The notes below the pieces were generated by a model that made no database searches, was not told where the DNA came from, and saw only the letters and a program-made list of their open reading frames with translations. DNA of 64,000 nucleotides from positions 195 through 64,194 of the forward strand of contig CP064973.1 in assembly GCA_016699365.1 (NCBI GenBank). Direction: 5' to 3'. Shown in pieces: positions 52-36,806 of this stretch (its first letter is position 1; each line of letters opens with the position of its first letter). The position numbers and the translations under genes are program-made. This DNA is from Candidatus Nomurabacteria bacterium (lineage in GTDB: Bacteria; Patescibacteriota; Minisyncoccia; Phycocordibacterales; UBA9973).

Positions 52-258
52 TTATTTAAAGAGCTCCTCTACCTGAACCTTAAGAGCTTTTGCTAGATTA
101 GTAATAGTTGAAAGAGTCGGATTATTTTTTCCGTTTTCAATATTACTAATAAAAGATTTATCAACATTAAGAGTTTGAGCTAACTCTGTTTGAGTAATGT
201 TTTTCTTCGATCTAATCTTTTTGAGATTTTCTCCCAACTTTTTGGCGTCATCTTTCAT
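52..258 (-). CDS. XRE-family helix-turn-helix transcriptional regulator (68 aa)
   Basis: Six-frame ORF; HTH_3-like motif (ITQTELAQTLNVDKSFISNIENGK). Confidence 0.65.
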   Translation of the reverse strand: MKDDAKKLGENLKKIRSKKNITQTELAQTLNVDKSFISNIENGKNNPTLSTITNLAKALKVQVEELFK

Positions 259-300
259 AAAAAGAGTATAGCATAAATCGTTGTATTAAACTACAACAAA

Positions 301-330
301 AGCAAGTCATTTCTGACTTGCTTTTGTTTG
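301..330. terminator. Bidirectional rho-independent terminator hairpin (agcaagtca-ttc-tgacttgct followed by T-run)
   Basis: Perfect 9-bp inverted repeat followed by TTTTGTTT; lies between two minus-strand genes. Confidence 0.45.
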
Positions 331-373
331 CTAGTTTCGACCCTTGTCGAGTGCTCGAACTAGCTCTCTATTG

Positions 374-515: not shown

Positions 516-1526
516 TCAAAGGTTTGGAGCTTCAACACTTGGGCTCTTCTTACCAAATATTATAGAATCCAAAGACCATACTCCTCCACCAAGGACAAAT
601 AGGATTGATAGAAGTCCAAAAAGTGTTATATGTGAATACACAGCTTCTTTGAAGAAGAAAAACGATAGGGACAAAACTCCAAATGCAATTATTGAAGAGA
701 GTCTAGTAAATAGACCTAAAATCAACATCAATCCTATAACAAATTCAACTATACCCGAACCAACAACCCAAAGACTTGGGTCAACTGGGATTACAGATGT
801 TAGATGAAAATTATTTACGACAAGTTCTGATAGATGTGGATTCAGTATCTTTTCGTACAAAGCTAAAAACATCATCGCTCCGCCGATCCCCAAACGCAAG
901 ATTGGTGAAGCTAGTGATCTTTTTATTTTGAGTGAATGTAGAATTTTGAAATTGAAAATATCATCAAACCCCGGACGCTCGTTGTGCAGAGCGAGGAATG
1001 CGATAGCTAGTACTAGAAAATCTAAATTACCAAGTAGATAGAAGTTTCCAGATAAACCAAATATATACAAACCAATTGTAAGTAGTGTGGTAGGTATCAA
1101 CAAGAAGCCTGCCATGAAGAAGAACCCTAATAGAATTTCAATAAAAGCAATACTGCCTGTGGCAATCTCTATAGGAGAAACTAGAACCTGAGCTGTCCCC
1201 GCTCCAATAAGAGCAATACCGAGTGAAAGTCGTATCGCCCAAGGCAAGAACTCGTCGTATGTCTTCAGTCTATCCACAACACGCCCTGCCCAAGATTTCA
1301 GAAAAATACTTTTACGATATATAAAAGCAATCAATACTACTGCAAGTATTATAGAAAGAGTTATATTTATAGTTGTCTGTGATGAGAGAGCTTTTAGAAC
1401 ATACAAAGCATCTTCTCCTGAATTGGCAATAAATTCTTCTTCTGTCAGCACATAACCTACATGGGCGGCGGCTTTGCTAAAAAAAACAAAAACACCCAAA
1501 AGAGAAACTAAAAATATTTTTTTCAT
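516..1526 (-). CDS. Polytopic integral membrane protein with N-terminal signal peptide (hypothetical)
   Basis: 336-aa ORF with many hydrophobic helices; no recognisable catalytic motif. Confidence 0.5.
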   Translation of the reverse strand: MKKIFLVSLLGVFVFFSKAAAHVGYVLTEEEFIANSGEDALYVLKALSSQTTINITLSIILAVVLIAFIYRKSIFLKSWAGRVVDRLKTYDEFLPWAIRLSLGIALIGAGTAQVLVSPIEIATGSIAFIEILLGFFFMAGFLLIPTTLLTIGLYIFGLSGNFYLLGNLDFLVLAIAFLALHNERPGFDDIFNFKILHSLKIKRSLASPILRLGIGGAMMFLALYEKILNPHLSELVVNNFHLTSVIPVDPSLWVVGSGIVEFVIGLMLILGLFTRLSSIIAFGVLSLSFFFFKEAVYSHITLFGLLSILFVLGGGVWSLDSIIFGKKSPSVEAPNL

Positions 1527-1579: not shown

Positions 1580-2161
1580 TTATATTTCTTTAAACACTTT
1601 ATATTCAAATGCCGGACCTTTTGGAGTGTACTCGACGACAAGCATGTCGCCGGAATTCTCCAGTTCTGCATATCCAGCATTCCACAGTTTTTGAGCTGTG
1701 GACAGATCCACATGATGGAGCATCTTGTGTGGTGTTCCACTTTCATGGACGAATACACACACTATCTCCTTCTCTTCAAAATACATAACCTTACTTAGTT
1801 CATCAACGAACGCAAGGTTGAAGGCTGGCCCATCTGAGTTATCAAATCTCCTCATGAGGCTTCTAGGAGCTTCCCCATTTGCTCCCATGTTTTGCATGCA
1901 TACACGCAGGGTTTCTCTTGAAGTTATACTCCCTGAATCTACAAATCCAGCAGATAAGTCTACTCCACAATCCTTCAAAGACTGGGTAAGTTTTTCTGAG
2001 AATTCCTTCATTGAGAACTTCACCCGAAGTTCACTGTGAATCTTGTCTGTAAGTTTGTAATCGGTCGTTACCTCAGCAAATGAAGCTGCTTTGATAAAGA
2101 TAAGCTTTTTTGTTTTTTTAGTGGTTTGTACTTCTCTTTCCATAAATAACTTTTTTATCAC
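1580..2161 (-). CDS. Hypothetical cytoplasmic protein (193 aa), locally GC-richer than flanks
   Basis: Long ORF with coding-like composition; no family recognised. Confidence 0.4.
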   Translation of the reverse strand: MIKKLFMEREVQTTKKTKKLIFIKAASFAEVTTDYKLTDKIHSELRVKFSMKEFSEKLTQSLKDCGVDLSAGFVDSGSITSRETLRVCMQNMGANGEAPRSLMRRFDNSDGPAFNLAFVDELSKVMYFEEKEIVCVFVHESGTPHKMLHHVDLSTAQKLWNAGYAELENSGDMLVVEYTPKGPAFEYKVFKEI

Positions 2162-2254: not shown

Positions 2255-2327
2255 GCGCGGTTAGCTCAGTTGGTAGAGCGACCCCTTGACGTGGGGTAGG
2301 TCAGAGGTTCGAATCCTCTATCGCGCA
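2255..2327 (+). tRNA. tRNA-Val (anticodon GAC)
   Basis: Canonical cloverleaf: GCGCGGT acceptor, D-loop AGTTGGTA, anticodon loop TTGACGT, T-loop TTCGAAT, discriminator A. Confidence 0.9.
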
Positions 2328-2340
2328 CAAAATTTCCGAA

Positions 2341-2499
2341 GGAATATTTTTGCAAGATAAGTGAGCAAACTGCTTTGCTCACGTGAGGATTCAAACAGCG
2401 GAGCTATATTTTTCTAGCAAGAAAAATAAGCGAGCTGGTGCCCAGACAAAACTTTTTGACGAAAAAGTTTTAGTCGAGGGAGAATCCTCTATCGCGCAC
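2341..2499 (+). repeat. tRNA-linked structured element, copy A, ending with a 19-bp direct repeat of the tRNA-Val 3' end (gaatcctctatcgcgcaca, 2481-2499)
   Basis: Three hairpins: gtgagcaaa-CTGC-tttgctcac; tatttttct-AGCA-agaaaaata; aaaacttttt-GACG-aaaaagtttt. Followed by a degenerate T-arm plus acceptor copy. Confidence 0.6.
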
Positions 2500-2634
2500 A
2501 GCGTAAAGAAAAATCTGCATTTCTGCAGATTTTTTAGCTGTGCGAGCCGGAGTCATATTTTTTCAGCAGAAAAAATAGACGAGACAGGGTCGTGAAAATT
2601 TTGTTTTGACGAAAACAAAATTATTCCTGACCCC
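2500..2634 (+). repeat. tRNA-linked structured element, copy B (tandem with copy A)
   Basis: Hairpins aaaaatctgca-TTTC-tgcagatttt; tattttttc-AGCA-gaaaaaata; aaattttgtttt-GACG-aaaacaaaatt. Conserved linkers cagggtcgtgaaaatttt and aaaattattcctgacc are shared with the tRNA-Cys copy. Confidence 0.6.
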
Positions 2635-2640
2635 AAAATT

Positions 2641-2668
2641 AAAACTCGCTATATAGCGAGTTTTTTTA
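2641..2668. terminator. Bidirectional terminator hairpin (actcgctatatagcgagt flanked by A/T runs)
   Basis: Palindrome followed by TTTTTTT on + strand and TTTT on - strand; abuts gmk stop. Confidence 0.55.
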
Positions 2669-5309: not shown

Positions 5310-7550
5310 ATGAATCCTGAAAATAACATCCCCGAAAAACTACTAAAACCCTACGAACACAAAGAGACAGAATCTCGAATATATAAAGCTTGGGAAGAGA
5401 GTGGTTTTTTCAATCCAGACAAAATGATTGAAACTGGACTCACCTCTCCCGATGCAAAACCTTTCACAATAGTTATGCCTCCACCAAACGTTACTGGAGT
5501 ACTACACATGGGTCACGGACTCATGCTTACAGTTCAGGATATTATGATCCGCTACAAAAGAATGAACGGATTTAGAACTCTCTGGATTCCTGGAACTGAC
5601 CACGCAGCTATTGCAACACAATCAAAAGTAGAAAAAGAAATTCAAAAAAAAGAAGGTCTTTCTCGCCACGATCTAGGGCGTGATGAACTACTCCGAAGAG
5701 TAAATGAATTTGCTCAAGATTCTCACGACACTATAGTTTCCCAAGTTAGAAAAATGGGTTCCTCTTGTGACTGGTCACGAGAAGCTTTTACTCTTGATTC
5801 AACTCGAAACAAGGCGGTAAACACTGTTTTCAAAATGATGTATGATGACGGACTCATATATCGTGGACACAGAATAGTAAACTGGGATCCAAAAGGACAG
5901 ACAACTATTGCTGATGATGAAATAGTTTATGAGGAACGTAAAGGAAAACTTTATACTTTCAAATATTCTCCTGACTTCCCTATTGCAATATCTACAACTC
6001 GCCCAGAAACAAAAGTTGGAGACGTTGCCGTTGCTGTACATCCAAGTGATGAACGATACAAAGAATATGTTGGAAAAACTTTCGAGAACATAGAATTTTG
6101 TGGTGCAAAAATAAATATAAAAGTTATTGCAGACGAATCTGTAGAAAAAGATTTTGGAACTGGAGCGCTCGGAGTAACCCCTGCTCACTCTATGATCGAC
6201 TGGGAAATAGCCGACCGCCACGACCTACCTCGCCCACAAGTTATAAACGAATACGCAAAAATGGTAACAGAAAGCGAACTTCTAAATGGAAAGAAAGTTG
6301 CCGAAGCGCGCGAAATTGTTGTGTCTTGGCTACGCGAAAACAATCTTTTAGAAAAAGAAGAAGATGTAAACCAAAATATCGGAACAGCAGAGCGAACTGG
6401 TGGAGTAGTAGAACCACTTCCAAAACTTCAATGGTTTATAAACGTAAATAAACCAATCCCTGCGCGAGAAAATAAAACACTAAAAGAGATTATGCGTGAA
6501 GCAGTCGCAGGCGGTGGTGTAAAAATAATCCCAGAGTATTTCGACAAGACATATTTCAACTGGATCGACAATCTACGCGACTGGTGCATATCGAGACAAA
6601 TCTGGTACGGACACAGAGTGCCTGTTTGGTACCCTGTTGGTTCTGATTTAGCAGAGAGTTTGCAAAATAGTAAAAGTATCACACATCCAACATTTATTGT
6701 TTCTTCTGAAAATCCTGGAAAAACTGATGGTACAGAAAATAAATGGGTACAAGATCCCGACACTCTCGACACATGGTTCTCTTCTGGTATGTGGACTTTC
6801 TCAACTCTCGGATGGCCTGAAAAAACAAAAGATCTAGAAATTTATCATCCGACAGATGTTCTAGAGACTGGATATGAAATCCTATTCTTCTGGGTTGCTC
6901 GTATGATCATGATGACAGGATATACACTCAACACTATTCCATTCCACACAGTTTACCTAAACGGAACTGTTCGTGACGGACAAGGACGCAAGATGAGTAA
7001 GTCTCTTGGAAATGGAATAGATCCAGTAGAAGTTGCTGATAAATTTGGTGCAGATGCTGGTCGTATGGCTCTCATATTCGGATCAGCTCCAGGTATAGAC
7101 TCACGTATAAGCGACGACAAAATCAAAGGTCAAAGAAACTTCGCAAACAAAGTGTGGAATATTGCTAGATTTGTTCTATCTAATACAAATACCGAAGACA
7201 TAAGTGAAGTACTAAATGACCAAGATAAAAAAATAAGAGAAGAATTCGATATCCTGGTTACAGAGATCTCAAAAGAGATGGATGACCACCTGTATCATGT
7301 TAGCGCTGAAAAAATATATGGATATGTATGGAATACATTTGCTAGTACTCTAATCGAAGAGAGTAAAACAATATTGTCTGGAGATGACGAACAAGCAAAA
7401 AAATCTCGCAAAGTCCTACTTCGTTTAATTTTTACTGATATACTAAAAATACTACATCCATTTATGCCATATGTAACAGAGGAAATCTGGAACCTAATTG
7501 GAGATAGTAAAAACATGTTAATGGTAGAAAAGTGGCCAAGTAAAAAATAA
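5310..7550 (+). CDS. valS: Valine--tRNA ligase (short form lacking the C-terminal coiled coil)
   Basis: PPPNVTGVLHMGHG (HIGH motif), KMSKSLGN (KMSKS motif), editing and anticodon-binding regions. Confidence 0.9.
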   Translation: MNPENNIPEKLLKPYEHKETESRIYKAWEESGFFNPDKMIETGLTSPDAKPFTIVMPPPNVTGVLHMGHGLMLTVQDIMIRYKRMNGFRTLWIPGTDHAAIATQSKVEKEIQKKEGLSRHDLGRDELLRRVNEFAQDSHDTIVSQVRKMGSSCDWSREAFTLDSTRNKAVNTVFKMMYDDGLIYRGHRIVNWDPKGQTTIADDEIVYEERKGKLYTFKYSPDFPIAISTTRPETKVGDVAVAVHPSDERYKEYVGKTFENIEFCGAKINIKVIADESVEKDFGTGALGVTPAHSMIDWEIADRHDLPRPQVINEYAKMVTESELLNGKKVAEAREIVVSWLRENNLLEKEEDVNQNIGTAERTGGVVEPLPKLQWFINVNKPIPARENKTLKEIMREAVAGGGVKIIPEYFDKTYFNWIDNLRDWCISRQIWYGHRVPVWYPVGSDLAESLQNSKSITHPTFIVSSENPGKTDGTENKWVQDPDTLDTWFSSGMWTFSTLGWPEKTKDLEIYHPTDVLETGYEILFFWVARMIMMTGYTLNTIPFHTVYLNGTVRDGQGRKMSKSLGNGIDPVEVADKFGADAGRMALIFGSAPGIDSRISDDKIKGQRNFANKVWNIARFVLSNTNTEDISEVLNDQDKKIREEFDILVTEISKEMDDHLYHVSAEKIYGYVWNTFASTLIEESKTILSGDDEQAKKSRKVLLRLIFTDILKILHPFMPYVTEEIWNLIGDSKNMLMVEKWPSKK

Positions 7551-9814: not shown

Positions 9815-9885
9815 AGAGAAACAATATCATAAAATAGTTTCTTTTTCAAAGGGGTGCTTACAGATAATTCCATTGTCCTCCATTG

Positions 9886-16728: not shown

Positions 16729-19602
16729 TTATATAACAAAGTTTATTATCCTACCTGGTACATATATCACGCGTTTTATATCTTTGTCTGAAATCCAATT
16801 TTTAACTTTTTCATTGTCTTTTGCCATAGACACAGCTTCATCTTCAGATATGCCGCTTGGCATAGTTATTTCTGCACGAACTTTTCCATTTACCTGAATT
16901 ATTATCAGATTTTCATTGTCTACTATTTTTGAATCATCCCATTTTGGCCAATCGGTAAGGTGGATAGAAGAACTCTCCCCCATTTCGTTCCACAACTCTT
17001 CAGCTATGTGTGGAGCAAAAGGTGCAAGAAGTTTCAATAAAATTTTATAATCATCTTTTGATATTGAATCTTTCTTGTCCAAATCATTTATTAATATCAT
17101 CATTTGAGATATTGCAGTATTGAATTTGAATTCTTCTATATCTTCTGTAATTTTCTTTATAACTTTATGTAGAAGTGTTCCTATATCATTTGCATTGTCT
17201 GAAATTTTTTCTTTTAATTTCCATACACGCTCAATAAATCTTCGCACCCCTACAACCCCATTTGGATCCCATGGATAATTTGTAGTAATACCATAGGGAC
17301 CCATGAATGCTAGGTAAAGTCTAACAGTGTCTGCACCAAGACGCTCCACTATTTCGTCTGGATTTATAACGTTTCCACGACTCTTACTCATCTTCTCTCC
17401 GTCAGGCCCTAGTATAAGCCCACGATTGCGACGTACTGTATAAGCTTCACTGTCTTTTACAAGACCCAGGTCATATAGTGCCTTTGTCCAAAAACGAGAA
17501 TACAGCAAGTGCATAGTTGTATGCTCTGCTCCTCCCATATACAAATCTATAGGCATCCATGCATCCATACTGTCCATGCTCGCAAATTCTTTTTCATTTT
17601 TGTTGTCTAGGTATCTATAGAAGTACCATGAAGAATCTACGAAGGTATCCATAGTTTCTACTTCTGGTTTCCAGCCAGCACCAAATATTTTTTCTGTTCG
17701 TTCAAATAGTTCCTTGCTTCTTGCAAGTGGTGCAGTCCCGTCTGGTGTATGATCTACATCTGTCGGAAGAATCCAAGGCAAGTGTTCGTCTGGTACAGGA
17801 TGTGCATTACCTTCCGGATCATATACTATCGGGATCGGACAACCCCAATACCGCTGACGACTAATACCCCAATCGCGAAGCCGATAAGTCTTTAGTATTT
17901 TTCCACCAACAAATTCTGTGATTTTTATACGAGCTTCTTCGGACCTTAGATTACTGAAATCTCCAGAATCTACTAACACTCCATATGAAGTAATGCATTC
18001 TTCTGTATTGTTTCTAAAAACTCTCCACGGATAACGCATATCTTCACGCATAATAAAATCATGAACTTTTTCGCCATCTACCCATACAAAATCCGCTATA
18101 GATTTTTCTTCTGGAGATACTTCGTCTCTATCTAAATCAGCAAGTTTTACATGCACAATTTTATAATGTGCAAATCGATTGTGTTTTTTAAATACATGAT
18201 AGAAAAGTCCATGAGAGGATTTGTCGAAAACTTTGATTGATGCAATATTTTTGTATCCAGTTTCTTCTGGTATTTCCCGACGCGCTGTTTCTTCTGTAGT
18301 GTGACCCTCTTCTATCCCACCAGTTACAAAACCTTTCCAGTCTACTTGTTTCCAAACTGCACACAAAAATTTATCTTCGGTTGGATGCTCAATAATACAA
18401 ACTATATTTTCTCTTGAAACTTCTTCTATCCCGTCTTGATATGCATCTTTGCCAGGCCCAGTGTTCACATCAATCGGCTCAATCACTTGCCGCATCGACA
18501 AATTGTATTTCTTTGCAAATTCAAAATCTCTCTCATCGTGTGCAGGTACTGCCATAACAGCACCAGTCCCATAACCCGCGAGTACATAGTCTGCAATCCA
18601 GACCGGAACCCATTCTCCGTTTGCAGGATTTATTGCCATAACACCCCCAACCTGAACACCCGTTTTGTTTTTTGATTGTTGACGATCAAGCTCTGATTTC
18701 TTTTTTGTATCTGCAATATATTTTTCTACCTCTTCTAAGTTCCAGATCTTTTCTTTTATTTTTGAAATTAATTCATGTTCAGGAGAGAGAACTATATAAG
18801 TAACTCCAAAAAGCGTGTCTGCGCGTGTTGTAAAAACTGAAACCTTTTCAAAAGGCTCACTTCTACCATTCGGCCATTCAGTCGGGGTATTTGCAATACC
18901 AAATTCAATTTCACTTCCCTCGCTTCTGCTAATCCAGTTTTTTTGTGATTCTTTGATATTCTCGGGCCATGCGAGTTTGTCTAAATCGTCGATTAGTCTA
19001 TCTGCGTATTTTGTAATACGAAGCATCCATTGTGGTTGGTCACGCTGAATTACTTCACTTCCACAACGCTCACATTTATTGTCTACGACTTGCTCGTTTG
19101 CAAGTATAGTCTGATCTTTCGGACACCAATTCACTTTTGTTATCGCTCTGTACACAAGATCATTTTTCAAAAACTGATTGAATATCCACTGTGTCCATCT
19201 GTAGTACTCTGGATCACAAGTTACGACTTCTCTGTCCCATGGAAAACTAGCGCCCATAGTGCGGAGTTGAGCGCGCATCTTTTCCATTTGTTCGTATGTC
19301 CAAACTTTAGGATCAGCACCGAGCTTGATCGCAGCGTTTTCTGCAGGAAGACCAAAGGCATCGAAACCCATCGGATAGAGCACGTTGAATCCTTGCATTC
19401 TCTTATATCTCGCAAAAATATCCGGCACGGAAAAAGCGTACCAGTGTCCTACATGTAGATTGCCCGAAGGATATGAGAACTCTACGAGTTGGTAAAAATT
19501 TTCCTTACCAGGCATTTGATTTGGGACACTGTAAATCCCGTCAGCTTCCCATTTATCCTGCCATTTTTTCTCTATATCTTTGTGGTTGTAATTTTCAGCC
19601 AT
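16729..19602 (-). CDS. leuS: Leucine--tRNA ligase carrying an inserted Nudix hydrolase domain (approx. nt 17998-18418)
   Basis: HVGH (HIGH), KMSKS, AHDERDFEFAKKY editing-domain motif and YRLRDWGISRQRYWG. About 150 extra residues between these contain the Nudix box GGIEEGHTTEETARREIPEETGY (REUxEExGU matched exactly). Confidence 0.9.
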   Translation of the reverse strand: MAENYNHKDIEKKWQDKWEADGIYSVPNQMPGKENFYQLVEFSYPSGNLHVGHWYAFSVPDIFARYKRMQGFNVLYPMGFDAFGLPAENAAIKLGADPKVWTYEQMEKMRAQLRTMGASFPWDREVVTCDPEYYRWTQWIFNQFLKNDLVYRAITKVNWCPKDQTILANEQVVDNKCERCGSEVIQRDQPQWMLRITKYADRLIDDLDKLAWPENIKESQKNWISRSEGSEIEFGIANTPTEWPNGRSEPFEKVSVFTTRADTLFGVTYIVLSPEHELISKIKEKIWNLEEVEKYIADTKKKSELDRQQSKNKTGVQVGGVMAINPANGEWVPVWIADYVLAGYGTGAVMAVPAHDERDFEFAKKYNLSMRQVIEPIDVNTGPGKDAYQDGIEEVSRENIVCIIEHPTEDKFLCAVWKQVDWKGFVTGGIEEGHTTEETARREIPEETGYKNIASIKVFDKSSHGLFYHVFKKHNRFAHYKIVHVKLADLDRDEVSPEEKSIADFVWVDGEKVHDFIMREDMRYPWRVFRNNTEECITSYGVLVDSGDFSNLRSEEARIKITEFVGGKILKTYRLRDWGISRQRYWGCPIPIVYDPEGNAHPVPDEHLPWILPTDVDHTPDGTAPLARSKELFERTEKIFGAGWKPEVETMDTFVDSSWYFYRYLDNKNEKEFASMDSMDAWMPIDLYMGGAEHTTMHLLYSRFWTKALYDLGLVKDSEAYTVRRNRGLILGPDGEKMSKSRGNVINPDEIVERLGADTVRLYLAFMGPYGITTNYPWDPNGVVGVRRFIERVWKLKEKISDNANDIGTLLHKVIKKITEDIEEFKFNTAISQMMILINDLDKKDSISKDDYKILLKLLAPFAPHIAEELWNEMGESSSIHLTDWPKWDDSKIVDNENLIIIQVNGKVRAEITMPSGISEDEAVSMAKDNEKVKNWISDKDIKRVIYVPGRIINFVI

Positions 19603-20856: not shown

Positions 20857-21273
20857 CTAATCGAAATTTTCTACAATATCATTAAAAACATTACTCTCAT
20901 TTTTATCATCGTCAAAAGAATTATAATTATCTAAGATTTCTTCTCCAATTTGAATATCTCTTACCGCAACTGTAACCACCTCTTCTTCATTGTCTCTATA
21001 TTCCGATAAAGCATTCGGATCGTCTGAGTGATTGAAATATTTACCATTATCGGAAGACAAGCAATATAAGCCACTCTTCTTACTTCTCCAGCAATATTTG
21101 TATGCATAAATTTGGAGCAAATCTGGAAAGTTTAAAATCTGCTCTCGTGTAAACTTTTGATCAAAACCTGGAGTAAACCTCCAAATTTCAGTTCCCTTTG
21201 GAATAAACTCATCTGCAAAAAGACCGATCCCGTGAATTTTGCTTTGAGCAATCTTATTTTTAACAAGCAACAT
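20857..21273 (-). CDS. SET-domain protein (putative lysine methyltransferase)
   Basis: GIGLFA...KGTEI, YFNHSDDPN (NHSC-like motif), EEIL.NY post-SET-like end. Confidence 0.7.
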   Translation of the reverse strand: MLLVKNKIAQSKIHGIGLFADEFIPKGTEIWRFTPGFDQKFTREQILNFPDLLQIYAYKYCWRSKKSGLYCLSSDNGKYFNHSDDPNALSEYRDNEEEVVTVAVRDIQIGEEILDNYNSFDDDKNESNVFNDIVENFD

Positions 21274-31558: not shown

Positions 31559-33580
31559 TTACTCTAATACTTTTCTCAATATATCTTCTGGGATTTCTCT
31601 AGGCTTTTTTGAAACTGTAGTGTTCGCCGGATCTTTCGATACAGGCACTGTATCAGATGATGAATCATTGCTCTCGATTGAACTATTTACCATTCTAGGT
31701 AATACAACTTGTTTTTGTGTCGTAGAAATAGGAGCTGGTGTAGGTGTAGCTTCTACTTTTTTAACAGGAGGAGGTGGTGGAGGTGTGTTGTTTTTGTTTT
31801 CGGCAATAACTTGCGCAAGAACATTTTTTAATGCATTTCTATTTTCGACAGTGGGTTCTTTTTGAGGTATAGGTTTCTTTTTCAAGCCCTCCAGAGATAT
31901 TGGATTTTTAGACACAGCTCCAATATTTGGATTTACAATAGTAGTCTGATTTTGATTTTCTTTTGGCAGATCATCTGTATCTATACGACTTACTAAATCC
32001 TTCAACCCAGAAAAAGGCTTCTTCTCTTCTGGTCTTCTATCAGCTGGTGGGTAGCTGGATTTTTGAACTAAATTAGATGGTTTTGGAGAAGCAGGTTTAT
32101 TGAAAGCTGGTCTTGAAGTACTTTGAACTGGAGCAGTTTGAGGTCTATTGAAAACTGGCTTTGGAGAAAAAGTGCTTGTATTTTGATTTTGACTAAAATT
32201 CTGACTACTACGATTATTTTCAATCGCACCGTTCACACTCGGCCGAGGAGCTCCATCAACAGGAAAGTCTCTTTTTGGTTTTTCAATTACGACTGGTGCA
32301 TGCCATTCCTTTATATTTTCTTCAATATTAGATCTTGGACGTGCGTTGGATTTTCTAGAATTTTCAATTATCTCTTTGGTATAAGATATTGCTGGTTTTT
32401 CAATTGGAGGCATTGAGAGCGCAGAGAAAGGTTTTGAGCCTATACCATTTATCATTAGTCTCAAGTATATCTGGATAAAACCTAAGTTGACTATATCTTC
32501 TGCTGTAAAAACAGGAGAGAATTCTTTTTCAAAAACTTCTGCATCCGTAGCACCGACTCTAAAAATAACCATAGTACCTACGTTTCCAAAAACAGCTGCG
32601 CGAACCTCGTCAGACATCTGCTCTATATACTGGTGAGCGATTGTGAGACTAAGTTTATATTTACGAGCCTCAGACAAAATATCGGCAAAACTATCACTAG
32701 CAAAAGACTGAAACTCGTCAACATAAAAATAGAAGTGTGGAAGTTTTTTTAGTGCATCTGGGCTCGCATCAGCGCGTGACATGGCCGCCAAGTATATCTT
32801 GGTAATAAGCATACCTCCGAGTAGTGCAGCATTTTGTTCACCGACACGTCCTTTTGAGAGGTTCATTATCAATATTTTCTTTTCATCCATTAATTTACGA
32901 ATATCAAAAGACGAATGTGGTTGGCCTATGATGTTACGAATTATTGGGTTTGCGGTAAATTGACCTATTTTGTTTTGAATTGCAGCACCAGCTTCTTGCA
33001 TATAACGATCACCGTATTTTGCAAATTCATCTACCCAAAAAGATTTCACTGATGGATCAGATATATTTTCAACAACTTTTTTTCGAAAATCTTTATCAGC
33101 AAGCATTCTGTTAACTCCAAGTAATGTTGATTCTGGATATTCAAGTAGAGCAAGGAGTATATTGTTCAATATGTATTCCATACGTGCACTCCAAGCGTCC
33201 ACCCAAATCTTTTTGAAAGAACTCATGAGTCCACTTGCCACTAGATGGCGCTTGTCTGCACCAATATCTTCCATAACATTGAAGGATATCGGATAGTCTA
33301 TATCAAAAGGAGCAAAATATACCACATCTTTTAAACGACTCTCTGGAACATAATCAAGCAATTTTTCTGCTGTTCCTCCGTGTGGATCTATAAAAGCCAT
33401 ACCTTCACCGTTTTGGATATCTTGGATAGCCATATTTTCAAGCAGAGTAGACTTTCCCATACCCGTCTTTCCTATAACATACATATGACGAGCTCTGTCT
33501 GTAGCCTTAATACCAAAACGCGTTCGTTTGTTACGATAATCTGTTTCTCCGAAATAAGTTATTTTATCTTCAGGATTCAT
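31559..33580 (-). CDS. VirD4/TraG/TraD-like type IV coupling-protein ATPase with a long disordered Pro/Ser/Asn-rich C-terminal tail
   Basis: Walker A VIGKTGMGKST, Walker B FYFYVDEFQSF, FtsK/HerA-like core; C-terminal roughly 250 aa are low complexity. Confidence 0.55.
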   Translation of the reverse strand: MNPEDKITYFGETDYRNKRTRFGIKATDRARHMYVIGKTGMGKSTLLENMAIQDIQNGEGMAFIDPHGGTAEKLLDYVPESRLKDVVYFAPFDIDYPISFNVMEDIGADKRHLVASGLMSSFKKIWVDAWSARMEYILNNILLALLEYPESTLLGVNRMLADKDFRKKVVENISDPSVKSFWVDEFAKYGDRYMQEAGAAIQNKIGQFTANPIIRNIIGQPHSSFDIRKLMDEKKILIMNLSKGRVGEQNAALLGGMLITKIYLAAMSRADASPDALKKLPHFYFYVDEFQSFASDSFADILSEARKYKLSLTIAHQYIEQMSDEVRAAVFGNVGTMVIFRVGATDAEVFEKEFSPVFTAEDIVNLGFIQIYLRLMINGIGSKPFSALSMPPIEKPAISYTKEIIENSRKSNARPRSNIEENIKEWHAPVVIEKPKRDFPVDGAPRPSVNGAIENNRSSQNFSQNQNTSTFSPKPVFNRPQTAPVQSTSRPAFNKPASPKPSNLVQKSSYPPADRRPEEKKPFSGLKDLVSRIDTDDLPKENQNQTTIVNPNIGAVSKNPISLEGLKKKPIPQKEPTVENRNALKNVLAQVIAENKNNTPPPPPPVKKVEATPTPAPISTTQKQVVLPRMVNSSIESNDSSSDTVPVSKDPANTTVSKKPREIPEDILRKVLE

Positions 33581-36363: not shown

Positions 36364-36448
36364 ATATATGAATTATATCAGATTGAAAATAAAATGAACT
36401 ATATAGATATGTTAAAAATAAAAATACCCTTTCAGGCATTTTTATTTT

Positions 36449-36620
36449 GTGGACCCTGCCGGAGTTTCTCCTTCGACTCATTGGTGGTCAGGAATAATTT
36501 TCTCGTCGTCGTTCGAAAATTTTCACGACCCTGACTCGGTATTTCGTATTGCTATACAAAATATACCTGCGTCTTCCACACACTAAAAAATCTCCAGCAG
36601 TGGAGATTTTTTATGTTTGG
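36449..36620 (-). repeat. tRNA-linked structured element, copy C (downstream of tRNA-Cys), ending with a degenerate copy of the tRNA-Cys 3' half (36449-36490)
   Basis: Minus-strand sequence aligns to copy B over about 130 nt: hairpin aaaaaatctcca-CTGC-tggagatttttt, tattttgtat-AGCA-atacgaaata, cagggtcgtgaaaatttt, GACG-containing hairpin, aaaattattcctgacc. Confidence 0.6.
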
Positions 36621-36693
36621 TGGACCCTACCGGATTCGAACCGGTGACCTCCTCATTGCAAATGAGGCGCTCTACCAACTAAGCTAAGGGCCC
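36621..36693 (-). tRNA. tRNA-Cys (anticodon GCA), CCA encoded
   Basis: Cloverleaf GGGCCCT acceptor, anticodon loop TTTGCAA, T-arm ACCGG-TTCGAATC-CGGT, terminal CCA. Confidence 0.9.
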
Positions 36694-36730
36694 AAATATT
36701 TGATATATAAACTACACAAGTCCAAGCTTG

Positions 36731-36806
36731 CTTGCAAATGAGGCGACTATCGTCTACTTGCCAACTAAGCTAAGGGCCCAAATATTTGATATATAAACTA
36801 CACAAG
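36731..36806 (-). repeat. Direct duplicate of the tRNA-Cys 5' half plus about 28 bp of its 5' flank (pseudo-tRNA fragment)
   Basis: ttgcaaatgaggcg...ccaactaagctaagggcccaaatatttgatatataaactacacaag repeats 36655-36720 with a 15-nt substituted block. Confidence 0.6.

Follow-up and report, generated by a model that had tools for sequence, protein, structure and literature searches.

Integrases that target tRNA genes classically use two sublocations, one running from the T-loop to the 3′ end and one at the extreme 3′ end of the gene. Group IIC introns land behind terminator hairpins, and some palindromic repeats that resemble miniature inverted-repeat transposable elements (MITEs) insert in transfer-messenger RNA (tmRNA) or other RNA genes. 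Patescibacteria (the candidate phyla radiation, CPR) have tiny genomes with few recognised mobile elements or non-coding RNAs. Group I introns occur in their tRNA genes (PMC13011429), and in the literature on the tRNAs, structured RNAs and repeats of these bacteria we found only these introns, which are a different thing from the family reported here. We analyzed a window of 64,000 nucleotides (64 kb) from a Candidatus Nomurabacteria bacterium (assembly GCA_016699365.1, contig CP064973.1, positions 195 to 64,194), in which structured units without any open reading frame (ORF) follow tRNA genes. The window contains three of them: unit A (2329-2500, plus strand) directly 3′ of tRNA-Val, unit B (2501-2640, plus strand) in tandem behind unit A, and unit C (36482-36617, minus strand) 3′ of tRNA-Ala. 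They belong to a family that is abundant and class-wide in Paceibacteria and is conserved like a structural RNA, yet turns over between close strains. The family appears to be undescribed.

Units A, B and C have a core of about 90 nt in common, which forms a three-way junction with P1 as its short closing helix. The junction comprises 4 nt, usually G-N-N-A. P2 has a base of 3 bp, the middle pair of which occurs in all four Watson-Crick forms, and above it a G-N-A/G-A internal loop, three more pairs, an AU bulge and a hairpin loop AGCA or AGUA. A linker of two nucleotides (A, G) leads to P3, which is unlike P2 and rises from a GGUC/GACC base through a conserved G.U wobble, a U.C mismatch, GAA/UUC and a bulged A to a variable hairpin whose loop is GACG. 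The three window copies align, and the fold of each is much better than that of shuffled sequence (z-scores from -4.9 to -6.2). With a covariance model built from 96 cores of relatives, unit B (2540-2635) scores 100.9 bits, unit C (36483-36579, minus strand) 85.3 bits and unit A (2391-2484) 61.3 bits, while the next-best score on the real strand of the window is 17 bits. The preliminary description of a repeated structured unit, tandem behind tRNA-Val, is thereby borne out. Other parts of it need correction. The third copy had been placed behind a tRNA-Cys, but ARAGORN and Rfam both identify the gene at 36618-36693 (minus strand) as tRNA-Ala(UGC). Three hairpins had been counted per unit: P2 and P3 are in the core, whereas the first hairpin lies outside it, is terminator-like and has a stem reaching into the tRNA 3′ end. 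The supposedly conserved linkers, cagggtcgtgaaaatttt and aaaattattcctgacc, are really the two strands of the P3 helix base, present in B and C and as a variant in A.

Pair statistics were obtained from an 86-sequence alignment fitted to the covariance model, a procedure that favours structure. Paired cells amount to 94.8%, against 69.3% in shuffles and 37-46% when the partners are slid. Two-sided changes are seen at all 35 modelled pairs, confirming the compensatory stem changes first noticed between the window copies, and none of 500 shuffles reached the observed covariation score. The three-way-junction fold is secure because of this effect size and the slid controls, despite the model-fitted alignment. 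Around 26 core positions are invariant, partly owing to the search pattern described below. G.U and U.G pairs (n = 135) far outnumber A.C and C.A pairs (n = 19), also when the two conserved wobble columns are left out (46 versus 16); therefore, the strand that folds is the tRNA-sense strand. Judged from these pair counts, the asymmetry would fit an RNA, and single-stranded DNA (ssDNA) would be compatible with it too. Several relations of the core to known motifs or to its own surroundings were rejected. A K-turn, C/D-box, signal recognition particle or hammerhead-like core does not suit the loop sizes and box order, as judged by eye, and lacks Rfam support. Kissing between the CUGC loop of the hairpin upstream of the core (hp1) and the AGCA loop of P2 shows no co-variation in the examples viewed by eye. 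Copying of the P3 base from the local tRNA holds for one locus (L124, GCCC/GGGC) and not in general.

The family extends well beyond the window. An exact pattern that represents the third hairpin's base (GGGTCGTGAAAA, 10-40 nt, TTCCTGACC) was scanned in a collection with one genome per species. At least 120 stretches match, and 113 of those listed have a spacing of about 46 nt like the window copies. All 113 listed loci are in Patescibacteria/Paceibacteria (CPR) assemblies of some 100 species, named Nomura-, Kaiser-, Zambryskii-, Yonath-, Taylor-, Lloyd- and Vogelbacteria, Paceibacteria, Minisyncoccia and Parcubacteria; many third-party (TPA) assemblies labelled 'uncultured Saccharibacteria' belong to them as well. 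The other seven listed matches, from other phyla and with odd spacings, are due to chance. The covariance model recovers around 35 further, more divergent copies in the fetched loci (handles beginning with L below). In the window, CAGGGTCGTGAAAATTTT occurs twice against 0.08 matches expected by chance. A filter-free scan of the window with the model reveals no further copies after tRNA-Glu, -Phe, -Arg or -Thr; beyond A, B and C there are only scars, seen by comparison with relatives, which brings the density to three units plus one or two scars per 64 kb.

Known families do not account for the units. Rfam 15 at gathering thresholds reports only tRNAs in the window, and only tRNAs and one unrelated SAM riboswitch in 14 loci; at E<=10 on positions 2200-2700 only sub-threshold, terminator-like chance matches appear. 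The units thus match none of the Rfam ribozymes (hammerhead, HDV, twister, pistol, hatchet, hairpin), group I/II introns, riboswitches, Y RNA or tmRNA, in line with the preliminary description, which had recognised no known family. A group I intron was rejected on the grounds that RF00028 gives no match at E<=10, that the core has two hairpins in about 90 nt and that the junction pair is C-G. A plain intrinsic terminator would suit the first hairpin, but a 90-nt core with 35 covarying pairs follows it. A classical MITE is at odds with the absence of fixed terminal inverted repeats, the differing left-end hairpins and a repeat length that varies (4-8 nt in type 1 units, 17-22 nt in type 2 units; both types are described below); the inverted repeats of the units are target-derived and not fixed for the family. 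The exact pattern has no match in the IMG/VR viral contigs, and a phage origin was rejected on that basis.

Other structured cores were observed behind tRNAs on the same scaffold, i.e., a hairpin, the reverse complement of T-arm and acceptor, a core and a tRNA 3′ copy. One of them (GAAGCCC...GGGGTACTGAYCCTGTAAGGRTC) occurs at L085:~1290-1490(-), L108:~6950-7090(+) and L035:~1650-1820(-), a second type at L080:~176-330(+) and L118:~6880-7050(-), and the core of L082 is related to P3 of unit A. None has a match in Rfam, and the tRNAs bearing them had been counted as core-less. These cores suggest a superfamily of tRNA-tail elements. The SAM-I riboswitch mentioned above (64 bits) lies in the Paceibacteria locus L035 at 5770-5869 (-).

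In most units, the end of a co-oriented tRNA gene lies upstream of P3, at 87-96 nt in type 1 and at 110-140 nt in type 2, and nearly every tRNA isotype is represented. Units without a detected tRNA stand behind tmRNA genes (L006, L038, L059, L064, L089, L113) or behind tRNAs missed by ARAGORN. Missed tRNA 3′ ends were seen upstream of the units in L073, L030 and L051; these are probably tRNA-Met or tRNA-Asp genes interrupted by group I introns like those known from Patescibacteria (PMC13011429). Behind 90 of the 166 tRNAs in the fetched loci a unit is present, while tRNAs inside tRNA clusters, all tRNA-Pro genes and most tRNA-Thr genes are without one. Both the existence of copies elsewhere and their tRNA linkage, as anticipated from the window, are thus found in relatives, with tmRNA genes as additional hosts. 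Downstream of the units, 51 genes are co-oriented and 39 convergent; together with the terminators behind units B and C, this speaks against a 5′-untranslated-region regulator or riboswitch of the next gene, which was rejected. Units occur on both strands of a window in which GC skew stays negative from end to end, so that their orientation is set by the tRNA rather than by the replication strand; this argument is weak, as skew also reflects gene orientation. Near-identical cores are found behind different tRNAs and in different genomes: the core of unit B resembles those of L040 (Lys) and of L014 and L057 (Val), and that of L110 (Val, type 1) resembles L116 (Trp, type 2). Some cores group by isotype across genomes, e.g., Gly-UCC in L037, L065 and L108. 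L057, L081 and L083 keep the syntenic order tRNA-Val(GAC)-unit-tsaD even though their TsaD is only 46-56% identical to the window protein.

The most informative feature of the units is a guide that is complementary to the upstream tRNA. The 3′ segment of the tRNA (X1), a terminator-like hairpin and the reverse complement of X1 plus trailer (X*) together form a palindrome. In type 2 units, X* is often divided by a second hairpin with a conserved CUGC loop, which sits where the tRNA body would join the acceptor and T stems. X* continues directly into the 4-nt core junction, the first 3 nt of which complement the tRNA as well (T54-C56 in type 2, nucleotides 70-72 in type 1). The 8-mer made up of 5 nt of X* and these 3 junction nt is an exact complement at a fixed tRNA position, from T54 or from nucleotide 70 onward, in 60 of 73 units; by our own arithmetic, chance would give such a match in about 5 in 10,000 per unit. 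For 60 of the 62 units with a placeable guide, the 3-nt junction at the foot of P2 complements the 3 nt that lie upstream of the insertion, and these 3 nt of the guide have no partner inside the unit. The guide tracks the tRNA even where the adjacent hairpin is near-identical, reading GCG behind the tRNA-Lys of L040 and GCT behind the tRNA-Arg-GCG of L026, and the target triplets vary from copy to copy (CGC, TCC, GGC, AGC, TTC and others).

The insertions coincide exactly with a C|R step, located either in the T-loop or at the acceptor end, and fall into two registers. Type 1 units (B and C) are found at the acceptor end, after C72 up to N74, and type 2 units (A) in the T-loop, after C56. Behind P3, most units carry a direct copy of the tRNA segment (X2) that ends near the discriminator base; it starts from C56 (CGAATCC...) and measures 17-22 nt in type 2, and starts from C72 (CACA...) and measures 4-8 nt in type 1. 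What the guide pairs with is approximately the segment repeated behind the core, and the sequences beyond X1 and beyond X2 differ. The X* of type 1 units pairs far better with X1 than with X2 (only 2-6 bp), and the unit of L126 has X* without a matching X2. Complementarity between the guide and the upstream tRNA is therefore the constant feature. In unit A, X2 corresponds to the 19-bp copy of the tRNA-Val 3′ end in the preliminary description; the copy is indeed exact, but its coordinates were one base off, as positions 2482-2500 (plus strand) copy X1 at 2311-2329 (plus strand). This repeat (D2, 100% identity, from the T-loop to the 3′ end) doubles as the landing site, i.e., the X1, of unit B. 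Type 2 units were also considered as degenerate tRNA gene copies and rejected: their 5′ arm is the reverse complement of the T-loop, also where that loop is non-palindromic, has an extra A and ATTTGCAC opposite GTGCAAAT, and continues into the trailer's complement. Template-switch correction may have given rise to part of the palindrome. In L060 (tRNA-Ala-CGC) and L100 (tRNA-Lys-CTT), the terminator stem extends into the last nucleotides of the tRNA (e.g., CCACAAACG...CGTTTGTGG) with no core behind it.

Exact look-ups of two window proteins gave no match. Close relatives, reached via TsaD homologues with 86-99% identity, display the same tRNA genes in different states. At tRNA-Arg(CCT), the site is empty in L122 (88% TsaD identity; ...GCCGGGGGCA|CCCTTTG...), a 136-nt unit flanked by GGGCA(C) occupies exactly this point in L124 (87%), and the window retains only the first 13 and last 18 nt of an L124-type insert as a 31-nt scar (9855..9885, minus strand). 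At tRNA-Val, a plain terminator without a unit follows the tRNA in L121 (88%), whereas the window has units A and B, L125 (86%) at least two degenerate units, and L126 (99%) one hybrid unit that is A-like on the left, has its own P2 and P3, and is B-like at its right end and flank. At tRNA-Glu, a full type 1 unit is present in L121 and at most a remnant in the window. Arrays include identical units in tandem (L113), pile-ups of four units with truncated ones among them (L013) and a unit duplicated behind a decayed tRNA copy (L116), and solo 3′ ends exist in L114 and in the window (36448-36478). The family thus joins long-term persistence with rapid local change. As separate observations, CCA is encoded in the tRNA-Val of the empty-site locus (L121:4410-4485, ..GCGCACCA) and is not encoded where units follow (window 2255-2329 and L126, ..GCGCACAAAA). 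The contigs of L125 (1-180) and L126 (1-200) begin inside or just before the unit array between tRNA-Val and gmk, which is consistent with assemblies breaking at the unit repeat.

The preliminary description had left two readings, a mini mobile element targeting tRNA 3′ ends and an RNA processed from tRNA precursors. The mobile-element reading is the better supported of the two, in the form of a guide plus a conserved core and no integrase. The empty, occupied and scarred alleles speak for it; an integrase-type att footprint, as that description envisaged, is not supported, as no integrase lies near the 113 listed loci or in the window and the inverted tail copy would be unexplained. We regard it as moderately probable that the family represents small (~100-170 nt), non-coding, non-autonomous, guide-bearing structured mobile elements of Paceibacteria that insert at tRNA and tmRNA 3′ ends in the orientation of the tRNA. 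A full unit consists of a terminator-like hairpin, an internal guide, the three-way-junction core and usually a direct copy of the tRNA segment; the guide is reverse-complementary to the part of the tRNA that extends across the insertion point, and selection on the tRNA-sense strand maintains the core fold. Such a unit would be transcribed by read-through from the tRNA promoter, choose its target by base pairing of the guide with the tRNA 3′ strand, and either carry out strand transfer or copying through its core or recruit a trans-acting enzyme for this step. The direct copy would regenerate a tRNA-like 3′ end that is open to re-targeting, and a second hit on this end would produce tandem or nested arrays such as B behind A. 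For the chemistry, either an RNA intermediate with a strand transfer resembling reverse splicing or ssDNA handled by a trans-acting enzyme may be envisaged. Regarding topology, insertion behind the tRNA with target duplication would fit the data as well as insertion at the C|R step with the unit bringing its own replacement 3′ segment, as in integrative elements or an 'intron-like' model. Since the guide of each copy matches its own tRNA, base-pair-directed targeting of tRNA 3′ ends is directly testable.

More specifically, the core could be a small catalytic or guide-scaffold RNA, whose guide pairs with tRNA-like 3′ ends and which performs, or directs a host enzyme to perform, strand transfer at C|R; or the unit could be a cis-encoded guide RNA acting on its own tRNA. 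We consider this rather unlikely. In the first case, the core would make a minimal RNA-guided 'intron-like' homing element of ~90 nt that brings or duplicates a 3′ exon and keeps the tRNA intact. The family may rest on a novel small ribozyme, on a guide RNA or on a partner enzyme that is new.

Several points weigh against mobile elements as the explanation. No insertion mechanism or partner enzyme was identified within 3 kb of the 113 listed units or among the window ORFs: clustering of the ORFs near the units yields housekeeping families only, with no recurrent integrase, transposase or reverse transcriptase, and Pfam on all 60 window ORFs finds no integrase, transposase, reverse transcriptase or HUH protein. 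Nor was an excised, circular or RNA intermediate observed. Empty sites may have arisen by precise deletion between the direct repeats instead of never having been occupied. There is no account of how a type 2 unit acquires a guide of ~20 nt and a repeat that match a new tRNA. Palindromes at tRNA 3′ ends without a core, as in L060 and L100, mean that the guide may in part reflect a trait common to tRNA terminators of these genomes. Finally, the core is far more conserved than the neighbouring proteins in the syntenic loci L057, L081 and L083, and some cores cluster by isotype; a host-useful RNA accounts for this no less well than a parasite does.

A host function of the RNA is accordingly the serious rival, although we hold it to be unlikely. 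Here, a non-coding RNA that benefits the host would reside in the tRNA 3′ trailer; the freed trailer would fold into the three-way junction, with or without the acceptor/T-stem minihelix, and act in tRNA or tmRNA biology. It might serve in 3′-end processing, form a module for stabilisation or termination, or act as scaffold and antisense guide on the 3′ half of its own tRNA, and copies would arise by local duplication and gene conversion. The extreme conservation of the core relative to flanking proteins, with the same tRNA kept over deep divergence, would be expected for such an RNA, as would a strand-specific, RNA-like selection on the fold, the location of every unit within the transcription unit of its tRNA, oriented with it and before the final terminator, and the persistence of the units in very small genomes. 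Type 2 units moreover mimic an acceptor/T-arm minihelix in which hp1 replaces the tRNA body, and the L126 guide without a matching repeat makes guide-tRNA pairing the constant. What a host RNA explains less readily is that units at the same tRNA are present, absent, scarred or rearranged between strains with 86-99% TsaD identity, that no more than about half of the tRNAs of these loci are occupied (none for Pro and few for Thr), that truncated and nested arrays are common, and that a strong terminator-like hairpin stands between tRNA and core. If the RNA does prove useful to the host, the family would be a new class of tRNA-trailer RNA.

It is distinctly improbable that the units are hairpin elements mobile as ssDNA, comparable either to the palindrome-associated transposable elements (PATEs) and repetitive extragenic palindromes (REPs) derived from IS200/IS605 or to folded attC or CTX-type sites. 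An HUH (Y1) transposase or a recombinase with its gene at another place in the genome would mobilise them in trans, and the guide would pair with the cleavage or target site. The units are hairpin-rich with conserved mismatches and bulges, have no ORF, and bear at the 5′ foot of P2 a 3-nt guide that complements the 3 nt just upstream of the insertion. G.T wobbles are tolerated in DNA hairpins, so the strand asymmetry is compatible with DNA as well. The right end of the unit resembles the target, and in some IS200/IS605 elements the right cleavage site (CR) likewise resembles the left one (CL). Against this, the target triplet differs from copy to copy, direct repeats reach 20 nt, P2 is unlike P3, both orientations occur under a uniformly negative GC skew with the tRNA setting the orientation, and a search covering the 64-kb window and the 8-kb flanks of the 113 listed loci found no Y1 HUH transposase, REP-associated tyrosine transposase (RAYT) or recombinase gene. 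Decayed attL/attR footprints of integrase-mediated islands or prophages that use tRNA or tmRNA genes are highly improbable and largely refuted: direct repeats of the T-loop-to-3′-end or extreme 3′-end kind do flank the units and tmRNA genes are used too, but no integrase or island genes occur at any of the 113 listed loci, the insert measures just 100-170 nt, a single core behind almost every isotype would need many integrase specificities, the inverted tRNA-tail copy and RNA-type covariation are left unexplained, and no IMG/VR viral contig matches.

The modular layout of the three units can be followed in detail in the window. The target of A and B is tRNA-Val(GAC) at 2255..2328 (plus strand; ARAGORN, and 68.5 bits with the Rfam tRNA model). 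Unit A, on the same strand, opens with a terminator-like hairpin (hairpin0, 2329..2351) composed of an A-run, a stem and a T-run and abutting the tRNA, as deduced from sequence and fold. The first part of its guide, GCAAGATA (2352..2359), is an imperfect complement of the acceptor 3′ strand of tRNA-Val, TATCGCGC, a layout common to more than 30 type 2 loci. Hairpin hp1 (2361..2382), with the conserved loop aCUGCu, splits the guide and recurs by sequence and fold in type 2 loci. The second part, GAGGATTC, followed by the junction AAA (2385..2395), matches GAATCCTC of the tRNA T-arm as an exact complement (inverted repeats I1 and I2). Helix P2 (2396..2437; CAGC-GGA-...loop AGCA...-GA-GCTG), placed by covariance-model alignment, forms direct repeat D1 with unit B, and helix P3 (2441..2480) has a variant base (CCC-A-GAC ... 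GTC-GA-GGG) and the loop GACG, a subfamily shared with L113:1956-2049 and L082.

Unit B, likewise on the plus strand, starts with a spacer and a terminator-like hp1 (AAAAATCTGCA-TTTC-TGCAGATTTTT, 2501..2536; sequence and fold), and almost identical hairpins occur after other tRNAs in L012, L026 and L040. Its guide GCTGTGCG plus A (2537..2545) is the reverse complement of CGCACAGC at 2494-2501 (inverted repeat I4). P2 (2546..2585) has the loop AGCA and a C.A mismatch at the middle P2a pair (covariance model and pair counts), and P3 (2588..2632; GGTCGTGAA...loop GACG...TTCCTGACC) contains the conserved G.U wobble, the U.C mismatch and the bulged A (fold, covariance model and pair counts). The tail CCAAAATT and an intrinsic terminator (2641-2664 plus a T-run) complete the region at 2633..2668, based on sequence and the terminator scan; CAAAATT at the junction of tRNA and unit A (2328-2334) is repeated in this tail. 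The terminator behind unit B is the sole strong one in the terminator scan, in which the first hairpins are terminator-like as well.

On the minus strand, tRNA-Ala(UGC) (36618..36693; ARAGORN, Rfam) encodes CCA and is the target of unit C. The hp1 of this unit (AAAAAATCTCCA-CTGC-TGGAGATTTTTT, 36585..36612) forms inverted repeat I2 there and is terminator-like in the scan. In the guide, TGTGTGGA plus A (36574..36582), GGA complements nucleotides 70-72 (TCC) of tRNA-Ala; past GGA, TGTG complements a CA-type tail (ACA) and not the encoded CCA, and unit C is among the 13 of 73 units without an exact 8-mer match. Helices P2 (36533..36573; covariance model, 85.3 bits) and P3 (36486..36530; fold and covariance model) follow. 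Behind them, at 36448..36485, an ACCA tail precedes a solo remnant of an A-type unit, recognised by comparison with the end of unit A and consisting of the P3 3′ strand AGTCGAAGGAGAA and a diverged tRNA-Ala 3′-end copy ACTCCGGCAGGGTCCACA (direct repeat D2, 84% identity); this copy, at 36448-36465, is part of a truncated second unit. A strongly reduced remnant may also be present on the minus strand after tRNA-Glu(UUC) at 331..366 (..CGAGCACTCG..AGGGTCGAAA..), weakly indicated by eye and without a covariance-model match, the same tRNA bearing a full unit in L121.

Some further observations concern the surroundings of the units. An exact 46-nt duplication (36675-36720 and 36761-36806) comprises the first ~19 nt of tRNA-Ala and 27 nt of upstream leader; with a 14-nt repeat of the anticodon region (36656-36669 and 36732-36745) it amounts to the 5′ half of a pseudo-tRNA-Ala, truncated and situated shortly upstream of the genuine gene. 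Elsewhere on the minus strand, the window encodes a TraG/VirD4-like type IV coupling protein (31559-33580), a leucyl-tRNA synthetase (16729-19602) with a NUDIX domain inserted at residues 413-516, and a small SET-domain protein (20857-21273).

With this family, the 3′ ends of tRNA and tmRNA genes stand out as hot spots at which genomes vary and assemblies break, and its units partly resemble four groups of described systems. With integrative elements that target tRNA and tmRNA genes they have in common the targets, the T-loop and 3′-end registers, the flanking direct tRNA repeat and the possible tandem re-use of sites; they differ in measuring 100-170 nt without integrase or cargo, in the RNA-like three-way junction, in the inverted copy of the target and in serving almost all isotypes with one family. 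MITE-like palindromes, such as the Rickettsia palindromic elements and Correia elements, are likewise short, structured, multi-copy insertions in small genomes, but the units lack conserved terminal inverted repeats and a fixed-length duplication, have a strictly tRNA-like 3′ target, and possess a core that is conserved class-wide. PATEs derived from IS200/IS605 and REP/RAYT systems are also small, non-coding, hairpin-based, multi-copy and non-autonomous, with a short guide beside a hairpin that complements the insertion flank; in contrast to these, the units show a variable triplet, long target-derived repeats, an orientation tied to the tRNA and, within the limited search made, no Y1 transposase. 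The geometry of the units differs from that of IS608 as well. The group I introns found within Patescibacteria tRNA genes (PMC13011429) and the internal guides of group I/II introns provide the remaining comparison: they too combine a structured RNA in tRNA genes of the same phylum with a guide that spans the insertion point, and selection at the RNA level with mobility. From these introns the units are set apart by a core of ~90 nt that gives no model match at E<=10, by their position behind an intact tRNA that they do not interrupt, and by a 3′ segment that is carried along or duplicated.

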